Below, in pieces: positions 20,694-54,021 of a stretch of 64,000 nucleotides of DNA. Source of the DNA: Octopus vulgaris (Eukaryota). The translations under genes and the position numbers were made by a program. The notes under the pieces were generated by a model. The model saw nothing but the letters and a program-made list of their open reading frames with translations. It was not told the DNA's origin and did no database searches. The stretch is taken from the NCBI GenBank assembly GCA_951406725.2, contig OX597823.1, forward strand, positions 112,344,001-112,408,000, given 5' to 3'. The stretch's first letter is position 1; every line of letters begins with the position of its first letter.

Positions 20694-20735
<42 letters not shown>

Positions 20736-20863
20736 CGGGAAGCTTTATGAAAATAGACAAAAGACGAAGGCAAGTTTACAGAAATAAACAAAAGACGAAG
20801 GCAGGTAGAATACAAACAAACAATTGTATTAGTATGGCGCTCAGGAAATATAAATAAAACAAG

Positions 20864-20901
20864 TCTTTAACGTTTCGAGCCTACGCTCTTCAACAGAAAG
20901 A
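20864..20901 (-). ncRNA. Minimal type I hammerhead motif in the PLE pLTR (family B, A6U core)
   Basis: UCUUU-CUGUUGA-A-GAGC-GUAG-GCUC-GAA-ACGU-U-AAAGA: perfect 5-bp stem I, 4-bp stem II, palindromic ACGU stem III. Confidence 0.8.
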
Positions 20902-21512
20902 TACACAGAGAAAAAAATACAGAAAGAAGGAGAGAAAAAAATATGCGTGCAGAAGCTAGCGAATCAACATGGCGATCTGATTTCGGCCAGAAGTCAAAGA
21001 TCAAACATGAGATGCAAGAGCGAAATTAGGGGAGATAATAGGGTTGAATGACCTCACTCCAGCATAAGAGTGTGTGTGTGTGTGTATGAGAAGAGTGTGT
21101 GTATGAGAGAGTATTAGTGCGTATGAGAGGTCTGGACGTGTGTATGTATATATGATGTGATGTGTAAAGTCGTATGGTGTAGTGTAGAGAGAGGAGAAGA
21201 GGGGGAGGGGAGGTAAGGGGGGGGTGAAGGAGAGGAGAAGAGGTGGGGGAGAAGGAAGGAGAGGAGGGGAGAGGGAAGGGGGAGAAGGAAGGAGAGGAGA
21301 AGAGGAGGGGGAGAAGGAAGGAGAGGAGAAGAGGAGGGGGAGAAGGAAGGAGAGGAGGGGAGAGGAGTAGGGAGGATAGAGGGAGAGGGGAGAGAGAGAG
21401 AAGGGAGGGAGGGAGAAAGAGGGAAGAAGGGAAGAGGAGTAGGGGTGAAAGGATGAAGGACTGAAGAGAAGTAGGGGTCGGGAGGAGGTTAGATGAGGAG
21501 GGGGAGAGGGGG

Positions 21513-23234
21513 TTAGATGAGGAGGGGGGGAGAGTTGAGACCAAATGGCGTATAAGAGCGAAGAGAGAAGATTAATTCCTGTTCACGGCGCAAACGGGAA
21601 TCTGGATGGCCTCTGTGTAAGGACAAACCGAACACAGACAGGTGTTGCAAAGAGTGACCAGTGGAGTGGAAATGGCGTGAGACCGGTGTGTCGTTCGCAA
21701 GGCGGATGTCACAAAGGTGTTCCGCGAACCCGTCAGCCAAGCGGCGTCCCGTTTGTCCGATGTACAGGGAATGGCAGAGAGAGCAAGAGACGCAATAGAT
21801 AATATTGCTGGAGGTGCAGGTGAAGGAGTTGATGATGCGATAGGGTCGATGATGGGTGCCAGTGAGGAGGGTGGTGTTGGAGAGGTAAGGGCAAGTGCGG
21901 CAACGTGGGCGGGAGCAGGGGAACGAGCCAGGTTGGGAGGTAGGGTCAGGGAAGGAGCTATGGACCAAAAGGTCTCGAAGGTTATGGGCTCGTTTGAAAG
22001 AGGGGAGGGGTCGGTTAGGGAAGAGGTGTGAAGTGGACGAGTCGGACTGGAGATGACGGAAAGCTCGAAGAATGGTGCGTTGGAGAGGTAGGGTCGTGGG
22101 GTGGTAAGTGAGGGGAAAAGGGTGGCGGGAGACTACAGGGTGGGTTCGGGGAGAGAGAGCAGATACACGGTCCACGGAACGTGCTCTGGCAAGGGCGGTG
22201 TGGATAGTGGTGAGGGGGTATCCACGTAGGATGAAGTGGTGAGCCATACGTTGAGACTGAGTCTCAAAGTCATGGTCGTTATTACAGAGCCTACGTAGAC
22301 GGAGGAATTGGGAATAGGGGATGGAAAGCTTGGTGTGTTCTGGGTGGGAGGAAGAGAAGTTGAGGTATGAGTGTGAGTCTGTGTGTTTGTAGTGAATGGA
22401 GGTGGTAAGAGTGGAGTGAAGAATGCTAACCGAAATGTCGAGGAAGAAGACAGAGGTGTTGGAGATAGTGGAAGTGAAGTGGAGGGCTGGATGGAAAGAT
22501 TGAATGAAAGAGAGGAAGGAATCTAGATGTTCACGGGAGAGTGAGGTGGCACCGATAATGTCGTCAATGTAACGACCATATAGTTCAGGAGTGGGACCAG
22601 TGAAATTAGAGAATATTTGGGCCTCAACATAGCCAACGAACAGGTTCGCATAGTTGGGGCCCATTCGCGTTCCCATGGCCACTCCTGAAACCTGATGGTA
22701 GAACTCGCCCGTGAACGAGAAGCAATTAAGAGTAAGGTCAAGTTCGGCCAGACGAATGAGTGTGGAGGTGTCAGGTTCAGGGTTGGAGCGGAGGTCAAGA
22801 AAGTGTTGAAGTGCCTGCAGTCCTTCGTGGTGAGGGATAACGGTATAGAGGCTCTGAATGTCCATAGTAAAAAGGATTTTGGAGGAGCCGGGAGGAAAGG
22901 AGAAAGAGTTGAAAAGCCGGAGAGCATGGTTGGTATCGTGGATGTGGGAGGGAAGAGATGCCACTAGGGGGGCAAGGACACGGTCGAGGTATTTAGAGAT
23001 GAGCTCCGTGGGGCAGTTACAGGCGAAGACGATGGGGCGGCCAAGGTTGTTGGGTTTGTGGATTTTGGGGAGGAAGTAAATGGTGGGGGTACGTGGGGTT
23101 CGTACAATTAGGTTGGATGCGGTGTGGGGGAGACGGGAGGACGAGATGAGGTCGCGGACAGTAGAGGATACCGTCTGTTGGTAGCTACGTGTGGGGTTAG
23201 AGGACAGAGGGGAGTAGAAGGAGGTGTCATTGAG
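21513..23234 (-). CDS. PLE reverse transcriptase - GIY-YIG endonuclease polyprotein (573 aa, N-terminally truncated)
   Basis: Motifs LPKIHK, GRPIV, TMDIQSLYT, GVAMGTRMGPNYANLFV, RYIDD, FLD, SSSHP, linker PCSRPRCRTC, IIY..CSLC..YIGQTGR, REQELI and GLN. No internal stops. The first 26 aa of the listed 599-aa ORF come from the flanking SINE. Confidence 0.95.
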   Translation of the reverse strand, partial: LNDTSFYSPLSSNPTRSYQQTVSSTVRDLISSSRLPHTASNLIVRTPRTPTIYFLPKIHKPNNLGRPIVFACNCPTELISKYLDRVLAPLVASLPSHIHDTNHALRLFNSFSFPPGSSKILFTMDIQSLYTVIPHHEGLQALQHFLDLRSNPEPDTSTLIRLAELDLTLNCFSFTGEFYHQVSGVAMGTRMGPNYANLFVGYVEAQIFSNFTGPTPELYGRYIDDIIGATSLSREHLDSFLSFIQSFHPALHFTSTISNTSVFFLDISVSILHSTLTTSIHYKHTDSHSYLNFSSSHPEHTKLSIPYSQFLRLRRLCNNDHDFETQSQRMAHHFILRGYPLTTIHTALARARSVDRVSALSPRTHPVVSRHPFPLTYHPTTLPLQRTILRAFRHLQSDSSTSHLFPNRPLPSFKRAHNLRDLLVHSSFPDPTSQPGSFPCSRPRCRTCPYLSNTTLLTGTHHRPYRIINSFTCTSSNIIYCVSCSLCHSLYIGQTGRRLADGFAEHLCDIRLANDTPVSRHFHSTGHSLQHLSVFGLSLHRGHPDSRLRREQELIFSLRSYTPFGLNSPPLLI

Positions 23235-28994: not shown

Positions 28995-29328
28995 TTCTTT
29001 TTATCTCAGGTTTTGTTGGAGCTCTTGGAGTCTTACATGAGTAGTGGACTTGCTACCTGCAGCCTACAGTACCATACTATTCATTCTTTACAGCTCTCTA
29101 ATACTTTCCTGATTATTCTGGCTGTGTCAAGGAGGAAAACCTTTTGTAACATTTCTACTGGGCACTCTATTCGAATTTCCTTTATATTCCCCTTGATGCC
29201 TTCTGATACTGTTTCCAAGGACCCAACAGTAATTGGCACTATCTTCACCTTCTTCATTTTCCATAGCCAGGCTATTTCATACTTAATTGGGTTGTATTTA
29301 TCTTTTTTCTTGCCTTCCTTCTTGACTA
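28995..29328 (-). pseudogene. R4/Dong-like non-LTR retrotransposon 3' fragment (restriction-like endonuclease end)
   Basis: KEGKKKDKYNPIKYEIAWLWKMKKVKIVPITVGSLETVS...MLQKVFLLDTARIIRKVL, flanked by (ATT)n on both sides. Confidence 0.8.
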
Positions 29329-29423
29329 TTATTATTATTGTATAAAGGATCGTGGGTAACACCAAAACAATGCAAAATAAATGCAAGAAAACAAATATAT
29401 GAATTAATGTAGACTTACCTTGT

Positions 29424-29461
29424 ATTCAATATTTCGGGGTTATGACCCCATTTTCAAGAAA
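29424..29461 (-). ncRNA. Minimal hammerhead motif with a U3-A8 core
   Basis: UUC-UUGAAAA-U-GGGG-UCAUAA-CCCC-GAA-AUAU-U-GAA, inverted immediately upstream of a PLE GIY-YIG fragment. Confidence 0.6.
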
Positions 29462-29499: not shown

Positions 29500-29800
29500 G
29501 ACATACAGATAGTGCACACTGGCCCTTCCCTGAGAAAAGCTCTGTTCAAGAACAACACCTCTCACTACTCTGAGGAGTGCACATTATCGAACTGCCCCAT
29601 CAATGACCCTGAATTGTGCCAGAGGACCTATGTTGTATATGAGATCATCTGTGGCAGATGTGACGCATCCTACATGGGAAGCACAATGAGAAAACTGCAT
29701 ATATGCATTAAGGAACACATGCAGATGCAGGCAGACGCTTCCGTGAAGAAACATCTACAGAAATGCCAGATCCAGGAAATTACAGTGCACATCAAGGCAA
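29500..29800 (+). pseudogene. PLE GIY-YIG endonuclease fragment
   Basis: CTLSNCPINDPELCQRTYVVYEIICGRCDASYMGSTMRKLHICIKEH...SVKKHLQKC (VVY..CxxC..YMG..EH). Confidence 0.85.
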
Positions 29801-33736: not shown

Positions 33737-35338
33737 AAGGGTCAGCTGAAAGGTCCATATGTTAACCCTGATATTCTCTTGGAATGTGACCAAATGAAGT
33801 TTATTTTCCAACATAGTTCCACTTGTGATTCACACACTTCTTTTATTGATGTTGCAGTGTATGGATGCAATTGATGAAGAAGCTTTCACCCTGTTGGTTA
33901 AAAAAAAAGCACCAACAGCAAATATGACGTCATCTTCACGGTGATACTGGCTCCCAGCTAAGTGGGTTTTTTTTAATGCTGTGGAACAAATGATAGATAG
34001 ATGGAGCTAAATCAAGAGAATAAGGAGGCTGGTCAACCCTTTCAAAGCCATGGTCACTCACAGCAGCCATTGAAGCCAAAGACTCGTGTGCTGGAACGTT
34101 GTCTTGATGAACCAAGACACCTTTCATCAGTTTTCCTGGATATTTGGTCTTAATAGCGGTTTGTAAATGCCACAGCAAGTTGGCATAGTACTCTTCATTG
34201 ATGGTGTGGCCCTTTAGAGATAGTCAATGAACACAATCCCTTTTGCATCCCCAAAAACTGAGGCCATCACCTTCCCTGCAGATGAAACAACCATGACCTT
34301 CTTTGGAGCAGTTGGTGGTGGTGGGGGTGTTTCTACTACATAGATTGTTCTCTTTGGCTCTGGTTACTCAAAGTGATGTAACCAACACCCATCCTGGCTT
34401 AGGAAACGTTCAAGAAAACCATCTGTATCTGCTCAAGCAATGTCAGCTTCTCCCATGATGTGATCAGCTTGGTCCACTTTTGATCGGTTGTCAGAAAACA
34501 TGGCACCCACTGAGCAGAAACTATCATCATACCAAGTTCCTTAAATGAAATATTCTCAACCCTTTCATAGGATATGCTAACAGCATTGGCTAATTAATTC
34601 ATAGTCAGTCATGTGTTATCCATCATCATAGTGGAGGCGCAATGGCCCAGTGGTTAGGGCAGTGGACTCGCGGTCGTAGGATCGCGGTTTCAATTCCCAG
34701 ACCGGGCGTTGTGAATGTTTATTGAGCAAAAACACCTAAAACTCCACGAGGCTCCGGCAGGGGATGGTGGTGATCCCTGCTGTATTCTTTCACCACAACT
34801 TTCCCTCACTCTTACTTCCTGTTTCTGTTGTATTTGTATTTCAAAGGGCCGGCCTTGTCACTCTCTGTGTCACGCTGAATATTCCTGAGAACTACGTTAA
34901 GGGTACATGTGTCTGTGGAGTGCTCAGCCACTTACACGTTAATTTTACGAGCAGGCTGTTCCGTTGATCGGATCAACCGGAACCCTCGTCGTCGTAACCG
35001 ACGGAGTGCTTCCATCCATCCATCATCATGTGGTGAACACAATCAATGTTTTCCTCGATGGTGGCAATTTCAGGAGATGTCCAGACAATGGGTCATCTTC
35101 AAGACGCTCCTTTCCTCTCCTAAATTCAGTTGTCCTCTTTTGCACTGTTGATAAACCTGGAGTGTCGTCCCCCAATGTAGTAACCATGTCAACATGAATG
35201 TTGTTGGTAGGTGGGGGGCTAAACCTTTTTCTGCGGGTACTTGATAGCAGCACGATGCTAAATTTTGTCCGTTTTCAAGAGAACTCACCACTTTTTTTTT
35301 TTTGAAGTCTTCTTTTGAAGAATCAAATGTCAGTCTAC
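33737..35338 (-). mobile_element. Decayed mariner transposon with nested SINE family 3
   Basis: N-terminal NIHVDMVTTLGDDTPGLSTVQKRTTEFRRGKERLEDDPLSG and C-terminal VLVHQDNVPAH...QPPYSLDLAPSIYHLF (YSPDLAP motif). TIR-like end at about 33737-33765. Confidence 0.9.
34631..35012 (+). mobile_element. tRNA-derived SINE family 3 inside mariner
   Basis: Matches 18764-19152. Flanked by the direct repeat atccatcatcat. Confidence 0.9.
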
Positions 35339-36029: not shown

Positions 36030-36060
<31 letters not shown>

Positions 36061-36064
<4 letters not shown>

Positions 36065-36245
36065 ATAAAGTTAATCCAAACAAGAAAGCACAAAAAAACA
36101 CAACACAAGGACGTGGAACAAATATTGTATTATTGGAAGCTCAGAAAAGAAGGAAAGAAGGAGGGTTTAACGTTTTGAGCGGAGCTCTTCGTCGGAAACA
36201 TAGGAGAAGGAAAGATCCAGAGAAGGGAAGACAGAGGAAAAAAAA
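36061..36245 (-). mobile_element. Family A pLTR-like element with degenerate hammerhead (36165-36199)
   Basis: GUUU-CCGACGA-A-GAGC-UCC-GCUC-AAA-ACGU-U-AAAC. It sits in the TA core of a decayed SINE. Confidence 0.7.
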
Positions 36246-36547
36246 TATATTTATGCATCTAAGCATGTGTGTGTGTGTTTGTCTTGACTAGTCTTCATAT
36301 TATTTACTAATTGTAAACAAATGTCACTATTGTATAAGTAGTGTAATTAATTTACAATCTACCTTGAGAATATAACTATCTGTTGTACTGTTAATGACTA
36401 AAGTACTCGGGTAATATTACTTTTCTTGAAAAATTGTAAGGGTAGGTGACAGGAAGAGCATCTCAGGAAAGCCATAGGAAATTTGCCTTCACCAAATTTT
36501 TCTGACCCATGCAATCATGGAAAAGCAGATAGTAAAACTGTTGTCCA

Positions 36548-42174: not shown

Positions 42175-42179
<5 letters not shown>

Positions 42180-42245
42180 AACTAATGCATTTGTTTGTTG
42201 TTTACACACTCGTCTTCATCTTTTATTTTTTTGTAAATTCTCACT
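42175..42245 (+). mobile_element. Extreme 3' tip of family B pLTR between (TA)n tracts
   Basis: Matches 45607-45678. Confidence 0.7.
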
Positions 42246-44082: not shown

Positions 44083-44116
<34 letters not shown>

Positions 44117-44135
44117 TATATATATATATATATAT

Positions 44136-44350
44136 AGTTAATCCAAACATTGAACAAGCAAGAAAAAACAACAATGCGAGGACGTGGAATCAGTACAGTG
44201 TTATTGGATGCTCAGGAAAGGAAGAAAAAAGAAACATGATTTCACGTTTCGAGCGGGGCTCTTCATCAGAAATATAGAAAAGGTCCAAGGAAGGGAAGAC
44301 AGAAAGAAATTCGCCAACGATACACACATACACAAGCGGTCACACATTAA
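44136..44350 (-). mobile_element. Family A pLTR-like element with hammerhead (44239-44273)
   Basis: AUUU-CUGAUGA-A-GAGC-CCC-GCUC-GAA-ACGU-G-AAAU. The core is intact but the cleavage triplet is GUG. Confidence 0.78.
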
Positions 44351-45516: not shown

Positions 45517-45677
45517 TTTTCTATTTTCTCTCCCTGTTTATTTCTCTGTTCCTTTCTGTCGAAGAGCATAGGCTCGAAACATAAAAGACTTTCTCACTTC
45601 CTGTGTGTTAAACTAATACATCTGTTTGTTGTTTACACACCTGTCTTCGTCTTTTGTTTTTTTTTGTAAATTCTTAC

Positions 45678-45714
<37 letters not shown>

Positions 45715-45905
45715 AGGGGAAGAATTCACAAAAAAAAAGACGAAGACAGGTGTGTAAACAACAAACAGATGTATTAGTTTAACACACAGGAAGTGAGAAA
45801 GTCTTTTATATTTCGAGCCTATGCTCTTTGACAGAAAGGAACACAAAGAAATAAGAAAAGAAAAGAAAGAGAGAAAATAAAGAATGTGTAGTGGCTAGTG
45901 ATCTA
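45517..45905. mobile_element. Tail-to-tail pair of family B pLTR-like elements inside a family 1 SINE
   Basis: Inverted copies at 45517-45678 (+) and 45716-45905 (-) around a TA/TG tract. Hammerhead motifs at 45552-45587 (+) and 45803-45838 (-). SINE halves at 45388-45510 and 45905-46122. Confidence 0.85.
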
Positions 45906-49379: not shown

Positions 49380-51355
49380 CCAGAGCCATTCTTGTTGCTT
49401 TTTTTTATTATAATCACCCCACAGATTTTTATGGATAACACCATACAAAATTCTGGTGCATCTAAATTAAGTACCATATTCATTTGAATCTAAATTTTTG
49501 CTGAACTTATATATATATATATCAGTTGAATAAAGTTAAAACAGTCTGGTTTTTATGTTTTTTATTATAGCATTTTAACAAAATTAACTCTTTCATACTT
49601 AAAGTGTTGTCTTTTGGGATGGGCGTTTAAAAATTTTTTTGCCAGATGCTGGTGTGTTTATGTCCCCGTAACTTAGTGGTTCGGCAAAGAGACCGATAGA
49701 ATAAGTACTAGTCTTACAAAGATTAAGTCTTGGGGTCGATTTGCTCAACTAAAGGTGGTGCTCCAGCATGGCCGCAGTCAAATGACTGAAACAAGTAAAA
49801 GAGTAAAAAGAGAGTATACACATGCACTGTGTAGTCGTCCTTCCCTCGTTTATTACCGTTCCTATTCTAACTCACGTCCATTGTCTGGAAATCTTTCGTC
49901 ACACATCTGTGACCTCCTCAGTGTCACTTTCCATCTTCGTGTGTGTTCTTGCTTGGCTTATTCCATTCATATATATAGATGATGATAATGATGATGGATT
50001 CTCTTGTCATGATTAACAAATGTGAGTTCTGTAAAATAAAGCAGTAATCATGTTCTATGGACATGAATGTGTCTCTTGAAGCTTGCTGGTGCCTTGCAAA
50101 CCTTTTGGCAAATAGAACAAGTCGAGGACTCAATTTGCTTGTGAATCATTTACACTCATGCACATACATATACTCTTTTTAACTCTTTTACTTGTTTCAG
50201 TCATTTGACTGCGGCCATGCTGAAGCAAATCGACCCCGGGACTTATTCTTTGTAAGCCCAGTACTTATTCTATCGGTCTCTTTTTGCCGAACCGCTAAGT
50301 GATGGGGACGTAAACACACCAGCATCAGTTGTCAAGCAATGCTAGGGGGATAAACACAGACACACAAACATACATATATATATATACATATATACGACAG
50401 GCTTCTTTCAGTTTCCCTCTACCAAATCCACTCACAAGGCATTGGTCATCCCGGGGCTATAGCAGAAGACACTTGCCCAAGATGCCACACAGTGGGACTG
50501 AACCCGGAACCATGTGGTTGGTTAGCAAGCTACTTACCACACAGCCACTCCTGCGCCTTATTATTAATATGCTTATTATTTTTATTAATATTAAAGCAGT
50601 AAGCTGGGAGAATTGTTAGCATGGCAAAGTGTTCTGTGCCATTTCTTCAGACTTTTTACTTTGTATGTTCAGAGAAGTACAAGCTGAAGTATACCAAGAT
50701 TGAAGGAGGAGATGGAAACTTATTACACAAAGTACAACTGGGATTTCCTTTGATTCAGTCTACACATGGCTAAAGTTCTGTGGTTACTCTTTTACTCTTT
50801 TACTTGTTTCAGTCATTTCACTGCGGCCATGCTGGAGCACCGTCTTTAATCGAGCAACTCGACCCTGGGACTTATTCTTTCGTAAGTCCAGTACTTATTC
50901 TATCGGTTTCTTTTGCCGAACCGCTAAGTGACGGGGACATAAACACACCAGCATCGGTTGTCAAGCAATGCTTGGGGGACAAACACAGACACACAAACAT
51001 ACACACATACATATATATATATATATACATATATACGACGGGCTTCTTTCAGTTTCCGTCTACCAAATCCACTCACAAGGCTTTGGTTGGCCCGAGGCTA
51101 TAGTAGAAGACACTTGCCCAAGGTGCCATGCAGTGGGACTGAACCCGGAACCATGTGGTTGGTAAACAAGCTACTTACCACACAGCCACGCCTGCGTCTA
51201 TAAAAAGTGTGCGAGACAGCGCCAGTGGTTTTCAGGGTATGAAGAATTCAACGAGAGTTCAGATTAACAAAGTAACCACATGGCTAAGCCCACACAGTAT
51301 GCCTTTGTGGAAAAATTTGAAACCATTATTATCATCATCATCATTATTATTACTA

Positions 51356-53513: not shown

Positions 53514-53556
53514 CGCCCTTTGACGAGGGACAACAATCCCGAAACTAGTTCGAGCG
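53514..53556 (+). ncRNA. Degenerate hammerhead motif (C3U) in element 53431-53722
   Basis: UUGACGA-GGGA-CAACAA-UCCC-GAA-ACUAGU-U. Stem I is only partly paired (cgccct / cgagcg). Confidence 0.6.
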
Positions 53557-53752
53557 TATAACTCAGGCTTGCGAGTAAGGGATGGCCTCCCTTTGCAAAT
53601 ACTCCAAGGACACTGATATTGTGTCTAAAGCCAGCTAGAGACGAAGATCTCTTGGGGCTATAACGCTACAGTAACACCCCCTCCCCAATGTGGTTAGCCA
53701 CGATAAGATGGCTTCTATACTTTATATATATATATATATATATATACGTATA

Positions 53753-53972
53753 AAGTTAAACCAAACATGAAAACACAAAGAGAAAACACAACAACGCGAA
53801 GACATGGAACGAGTATAGTGTTATTGGACGCTCAGGAAAGCAAAGAAAGAAGGAGGATTTAACATTTCAAGCAGAGCTCTTCGTCAGAAACATAGGGAAA
53901 AGAAAGATCCAAAGAAGGGAAGACGGAAGAAAAAAAATCGCCAATGGTACACATGCGGTACACCCGCGGTCA
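53753..53972 (-). mobile_element. Family A pLTR-like element with hammerhead (53857-53891)
   Basis: GUUU-CUGACGA-A-GAGC-UCU-GCUU-GAA-AUGU-U-AAAU, with TA flanks. Confidence 0.78.
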
Positions 53973-54021
53973 CATATATATACATACACATAGCCATACT
54001 TACATACATATATACATACAT

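Follow-up and report, generated by a model that had tools for sequence, protein, structure and literature searches.

The window analyzed here is the whole 64,000-nucleotide stretch of Octopus vulgaris DNA (contig OX597823.1). Its focus is the 3′ end of a Penelope element (PLE), whose pseudo-LTR (pLTR) contains a minimal hammerhead motif with U at core position 6. pLTR copies of two families are present, family A with A6 and family B with U6:

20735–21064, minus strand: 3′ pLTR, ending in a (TA)n tract
20864–20901, minus strand: B1 hammerhead motif, minimal type I, subfamily B1, with U at core position 6
20901–20897/20868–20864, minus strand: stem I of the B1 motif
20896 (C3), 20893 (U6), 20892 (N7), and 20890 (A9), minus strand: core of the B1 motif, with a bulged A at 20889
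20888–20885/20880–20877, minus strand: stem II of the B1 motif, 4 bp with a GUAG loop
20876–20869, minus strand: 3′ side of the B1 motif, with G12 to A15.1 at 20876–20873, the palindrome ACGU at 20873–20870, and N17 at 20869
21065–21512, minus strand: CT-/CA-rich low-complexity spacer from ORF stop to pLTR, a putative 3′ UTR
21513–23234, minus strand: ORF with RT, Zn-finger linker, and GIY-YIG, 5′-truncated (Pfam RVT_1, E = 1.7e-7)
42176–42245, plus strand: family B pLTR tail, a fourth B fragment, without hammerhead and between (TA)n tracts
44103–44347, minus strand: family A pLTR copy, the A6 comparator
105–348, 36037–36246, and 53723–53977, minus strand: other family A pLTR copies
45517–45670, plus strand: B2 pLTR fragment of family B, motif at 45551–45588 with U6 and C7 (22.1 bits with the A6-relative model)
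45731–45880, minus strand: inverted arm of the B2 insertion, motif at 45839–45802 with U6, and with G8 and C15.2 changed (CpG-type decay)

The element and its U6 motifs

Full-coverage protein relatives of the ORF share 43–56% identity with it, and its best named relatives come from coral, snail, sea urchin, and crinoid (44–57%); full-length PLE proteins measure ∼889–930 aa. In an alignment of 16 sequences the ORF starts at column 360 of 950, with ∼330 N-terminal residues missing. Its frame opens within a microsatellite and has no start codon, and at least five changes fall at columns conserved at 90% or more. The ORF is a 5′-truncated, decaying copy with an open frame; on these grounds, the first-pass annotation's description of the ORF attached to the motif as intact does not hold.

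A CX2-5CxxC linker separates the RT from the C-terminal GIY-YIG domain, and both CSRPRCRTC and the endonuclease motifs align with those of relatives. Linkers of this type are a Neptune or Nematis feature (PMC8557442). The linker fits Neptune or Nematis alike, and the element is probably Neptune-like, with indirect support from the hammerhead motif of the relatives L030–L032 (see below). Scanning viral contigs at the protein level yielded no confirmed relative. The hammerhead motif lies in the pLTR next to the RT-EN ORF, ∼610 nt 3′ of the ORF stop and on the same strand; we infer continuity from ORF to pLTR across the low-complexity spacer.

Core positions 3–9 read CUGUUGA at 20896–20890 (minus), CUGUCGA at 45556–45562 (plus), and CUGUCAA at 45834–45828 (minus), confirming the CUGU letters and coordinates first reported at all three sites. 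Each of the three U6 motifs retains the complete minimal-hammerhead frame (bulged A, 4-bp stem II, GAAA, NUH, and stem I), and in B1 the palindrome step is C15.2-G16.2, followed by U16.1. The motifs at 45556 and 45834 are inverted relative to one another and identical at 110/113 columns, and they therefore represent one insertion. The annotation's detail of three separate copies is wrong: Only B1 and B2 count as independent U6 copies in the window. B1 and B2 are ∼74% alike over 160 bases, and the probability that two independent copies both decayed from A to U by chance is ∼0.001, with 10% divergence assumed.

Elsewhere in the window, a candidate U3-A8-type minimal hammerhead (29457–29432, minus) lies inverted just upstream of a GIY-YIG remnant (29545–29757, plus; tblastn E = 2.5e-5), and the pair appears to represent a second, more distant PLE family. 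Other hammerhead-like sequences include a decayed motif at 53520–53544 (plus) in which stem II has 4 bp and GAAA is followed by an ACUAGU palindrome; a CUGAGGA core with a 6-bp hairpin and GAAA, without adjacent stem I, at 49921–49894 (minus); and a weak model match at 50655–50626 (minus; 16.6 bits, E = 0.018), whose core reads CUGAAGA and which may have a stem I. An Rfam Vault RNA match at 51205–51295 (minus; 42.9 bits vs. a gathering score of 34) heads a copy of an abundant SINE-like repeat and could represent a pol III head instead of a vault gene. We take the abundant SINE-like repeats of the window to resemble octopus SINEs; the frame at 33936–34223 (minus) presumably resembles a mariner transposase remnant, and that at 29081–29425 (minus) presumably a non-LTR RT C-terminus.

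Position 6 across family B and its relatives

Public contigs were placed on the pLTR (20745–21064) at 80% likeness, and differences were listed from 8%. Four of 24 listed runs, carrying three organism labels, were used: X1 (organism A; 10,585 contigs placed), X2 (organism B; 21,729), X8 (organism D; 4,775), and X11 (organism A, possibly RNA and for that reason not counted as evidence of expression; 2,417). The window itself may derive from the source of X1, and X2, X8, and X11 come from three other studies. At position 20893 no letter other than U reached 8% in any of the four runs, where percentages refer to depth, not copy number, and contigs lose rare variants. The summed depth beside this position was 0.9–9.5 million at the neighboring base, and none of the 23 substitution rows, at 22 places, fell on 20893. 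Pile-up coordinates agree with the checked window letters, and the C7 row corresponds to the state of the B2 copy.

An alternative reading, named by the first-pass annotation as its refuting condition, would make the window copies outliers of a family whose consensus is A6. It can appeal to the presence of only two independent copies in the window and to possible under-counting of clipped divergent contigs: Family A is probably too distant for placement, and any A6 copies that differ further nearby might have been clipped or left unplaced. However, with all depth missing at 20893 counted as A6, U6 still makes up ∼55% of peak depth, a majority even in this worst case, and the depth dip at 20893 resembles that at N17 and more likely reflects assembly bubbles. 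Together with the lack of any alternative letter at 8% or more in 4/4 runs, this already largely refutes the outlier reading, to which we attach almost no weight. U6 is the family consensus in the pile-up, and we are close to certain that it is family-wide and inherited, as the first-pass annotation had proposed.

Family B is very abundant in the pile-up and comprises at least two subfamilies. Depth is at its maximum over the motif, and hundreds of contigs come loose at 20861 and at 20899–20900, some with B2-like flanks; several flank types, and more than one subfamily, therefore share the U6 core. Within the 38-nt motif, only N7 and N17 vary at 8% or more. In X1, X2, X8, and X11, respectively, N7 is C in 24, 13, 19, and 17% of depth and A in 17, 11, 21, and 22%, whereas N17 is A in 87, 55, 61, and 70%, with G not among the rows at 8%.

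The related family A has C3 at 275, 36195, 44269, and 53887 (all minus) and keeps A6 in 4/4 copies; the CUGA attributed to this family is correct as to A6, with one copy reading CCGA. The copies at 275, 36195, and 53887 (minus) show a CpG-type change at C11.1 or G12 and are, judging by their letters, probably inactive.

More distant relatives were sought in a metagenome scan with positions 6 and 7 left free, which returned at least 121 matches in at least 120 loci; these were filtered by hammerhead context (NUH and stem I), a filter blind to position 6. Among the matches listed, those that passed carried A6 in 59/59 cases (49/49 distinct). Another 62 listed matches failed, 18 of them with a non-A letter at position 6 (three with T), all lacking the combination of NUH and stem I. 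Three PLE loci (L030–L032; 55–61% protein identity) each carry an A6 motif ∼120 nt past the ORF, which equals the published Acropora Neptune row except for U4C. The animal-type PLE ORFs and hammerheads of these three loci sit inside bacterial-MAG contigs, probably as host contamination. Published PLE representatives have A6 in 56/56 rows of Fig. S3 (PMC4209133), motifs obtained with a descriptor requiring the core, a bias that the authors note. A pattern scan of viral contigs gave no match, and 29 pattern matches in prokaryote genomes were dismissed as chance, none having hammerhead context. At 20869, family B prefers A17 (GUA, 55–87% of depth), and A6 relatives have C17 in 56/59 among the matches listed.

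Because family A, the metagenome relatives, and the published PLE representatives keep A6, U6 is, on this comparative evidence, the derived state, which was then amplified.

Relation to known hammerheads and predicted folding

Set against the definition of the PLE minimal hammerhead (min-HHR), the B motif has type I topology, with a short stem I closing the junction (5 bp in B1, 4 bp in B2), an unpaired base between A9 and G10.1, and a G10.1-C11.1 pair closing stem II. Intramolecular stem III is absent and positions 15.2–16.2 are palindromic, as required (ACGU in B1); the palindrome positions show no variant at 8% or more in the pile-up and are lost in the B2 copies by CpG-type decay. The NUH cleavage triplet is GUU in B1 and GUA in 55–87% of pile-up depth. 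The departure lies in the core, where the consensus YUGANRA has A6 and the B motif has U6, both in 3/3 window motifs and as the family state. The B motif is accordingly filed as a variant homologue of the min-HHR, not as a consensus member.

Rfam hammerhead covariance models gave no match at E ≤ 10 in 20760–21050, and no hammerhead family appeared among 150 of 409 rows for the whole window, which also contains the A6 family A. A model built from 33 A6 motifs placed B1 second in the window, among family A copies (26.8 bits, E ∼ 1.5e-5), a score that is partly circular, the search pattern having been derived from window letters and the motifs filtered on stem I pairing.

The closest published row is that of the Acropora digitifera Neptune element (PMC4209133, Fig. 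S3). Family B has in common with the metazoan PLE min-HHRs the type I form, the short stem I, the bulge ahead of stem II, the G10.1-C11.1 pair, a tetraloop-capped 4-bp stem II, a CG palindrome replacing stem III, the NUH triplet, a site 3′ of a truncated RT-EN ORF, and an inverted second copy nearby (PMC4209133). It differs in having U6 instead of A6; the U3-A8 core variant described in PMC4209133 is compensatory, whereas A6U has no evident partner. A natural pyrimidine at position 6 also occurs in the hammerhead of phage Bcep176, which is slow in Mg2+ but active (PMC3088659, PMC7151607). The two cases differ in the base (C6 in Bcep176) and in scale: Bcep176 is one phage sequence (PMC3088659), and family B is a high-copy animal retroelement family in which U6 is fixed.

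No natural A6U hammerhead was found in the literature searched, although U6 families could be present in the Lünse et al. 2017 alignments; the available portions of bioRxiv 2026.07.22.740005, PMC6155905, PMC11014351, and PMC2553840 contain nothing on A6U. One A6U string match in the literature proved to be a twister ribozyme, not a hammerhead, and a CUGUAGA match came from a design paper that writes CUGAUGA elsewhere for the same segment.

The B1 monomer is predicted to form a rod of −10.8 kcal/mol with U4-G16.2, G5-C15.2, U6-A15.1, and U7-A14 pairs. Such a structure would suit a non-cleaving role in which the motif is a fold or a protein-binding site, for example the rod with its U6-A15.1 pair, and Cervera and De la Pena leave functions other than cleavage open (PMC4209133). 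The rod is not unusual when compared with shuffles, however (z = −1.8, 9/200), and A6 relatives form inactive rods of equal stability in another register, with A6 paired in 21/26; the gap between rod and open core has a median of 2.65 kcal/mol in 26 A6 motifs vs. 2.4 kcal/mol in B1. Moreover, C7 and A7, which make up 24–42% of depth, break the U7-A14 pair, and in the one PLE tested the insertion RNA is the ORF start region and hammerhead cleavage is dispensable (PMC11167929). We regard a purely structural role as unlikely.

Three further proposals were set aside. That U6 acts as a special lock on the inactive rod was rejected, since A6 relatives form rods of like stability. An alternative register with the downstream UUGAAGA as core leaves one pair in stem II, a stem I that is not adjacent, and a variable position 4. 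RNA editing was rejected because U-to-A editing is not known to occur.

Cleavage, constraint, and meaning

Our preferred reading, held tentatively, is that the U6 motif is a strongly slowed ribozyme whose hammerhead fold is still maintained; its cleavage is probably very slow or absent. An ancestral A6 minimal hammerhead in the pLTR of a Neptune-like Penelope would have changed from A6 to U in a master copy, and the resulting U6 lineage (family B, at least two subfamilies) would then have been amplified. Family B RNA would fold as a hammerhead, either with the ACGU palindrome joining two copies in a shared stem III or with stabilization by the element's protein, and would cleave after GUA/GUU at a rate far below that of an A6 core in Mg2+. 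U6 would thus slow an already weak ribozyme, and the spread of family B would be independent of fast cleavage: Slow or assisted cleavage would be sufficient, since PLE insertion would not depend on cutting the template.

Several published observations bear on this reading. Natural A6C is slow but active, at <0.1 per min (PMC3088659). Counting against a maintained ribozyme, A6C brought one hammerhead down from 0.3 per min to 3.55e-6 per min at 0.3 mM Mg2+, which may be functionally zero; A6C rates are very low in Mg2+ but return almost to normal with Mn2+ (PMC7151607). As monomers, metazoan min-HHRs show no activity, and their dimers are weak (PMC4209133). The hammerhead of the Anolis Poseidon element PAc, like that of family B, lies in the pLTR of an endonuclease-bearing PLE; it cleaves only with protein, and insertion by its mutants in vitro is unaffected (PMC11167929). 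This protein-assisted cleavage, dispensable for insertion in vitro, is our working model for family B, from which PAc differs in belonging to the Penelope/Poseidon clade; the mutants described for PAc are C3 and G8 changes (PMC11167929).

A strong rival, missing from the functional options first offered for the motif, is that A6U abolished cleavage at no cost and that a dead ribozyme is carried passively, not yet eroded. The normal in vitro insertion of hammerhead mutants fits this rival, as does the lack of RNA-seq ends at the cleavage site (PMC11167929), and Naiad PLEs reach high copy number without canonical hammerheads (PMC8557442). A type III hammerhead mutagenized in all pairwise combinations had low activity with any one substitution in CUGA, and the C3-G8 swap alone gave rescue (PMC9901934). 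Zero variant rows at the other 12 core bases of family B carry no statistical weight by themselves, being expected by chance (P = 0.41).

Passive carriage is harder to reconcile with the pattern of variation: N7 has three states, N17 is A or U, and no other motif position varies at 8% or more. Hammerheads leave both of these positions free; the chance of both variable sites falling on free positions, calculated post hoc, is 0.001 (two free positions) to 0.03 (seven free). B1 and B2 also agree at more motif than flank columns (33/38 vs. 91/130; Fisher P = 0.027), although neutral causes may account for faster change in these low-complexity flanks. Constraint on the remaining motif is thus suggestive, not proven, and we consider a dead ribozyme the main rival, somewhat less likely than the slowed one.

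Compensation is a further alternative, in which A17, the GUAG loop, or another metal ion offsets U6 and restores a rate close to that of family A. The Mn2+ restoration of near-normal A6C rates (PMC7151607) and the A17 majority of family B (55–87% vs. C17 in 56/59 listed A6 relatives) lend themselves to this idea. Yet U17 accompanies U6 in B1 and, as far as the A row of the pile-up indicates, in most of the remaining 13–45% of depth, and no double mutant apart from the C3-G8 swap rescued CUGA changes (PMC9901934); we judge near-normal activity to be quite improbable.

A more far-reaching interpretation, for which we see some but limited likelihood, is that an uncompensated core change has been fixed in a high-copy animal retroelement with the rest of the core under selection, as a conditional ribozyme or a reused non-cleaving fold. 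In the conditional version, the ribozyme would stay off unless activated by a partner copy, another metal ion, or the protein that the element encodes. If this conserved-core interpretation is true, consensus-based searches would miss such families entirely.

Two homologous families in one genome, A with A6 and B with U6, provide a natural paired test of the need for PLE hammerhead cleavage. If U6 is dead, the family was amplified without a working ribozyme, which would support dispensable cleavage in vivo; if U6 cleaves, the hammerhead core would tolerate more change than mutagenesis indicates. In both cases, descriptors with CUGANGA fixed under-count such motifs.
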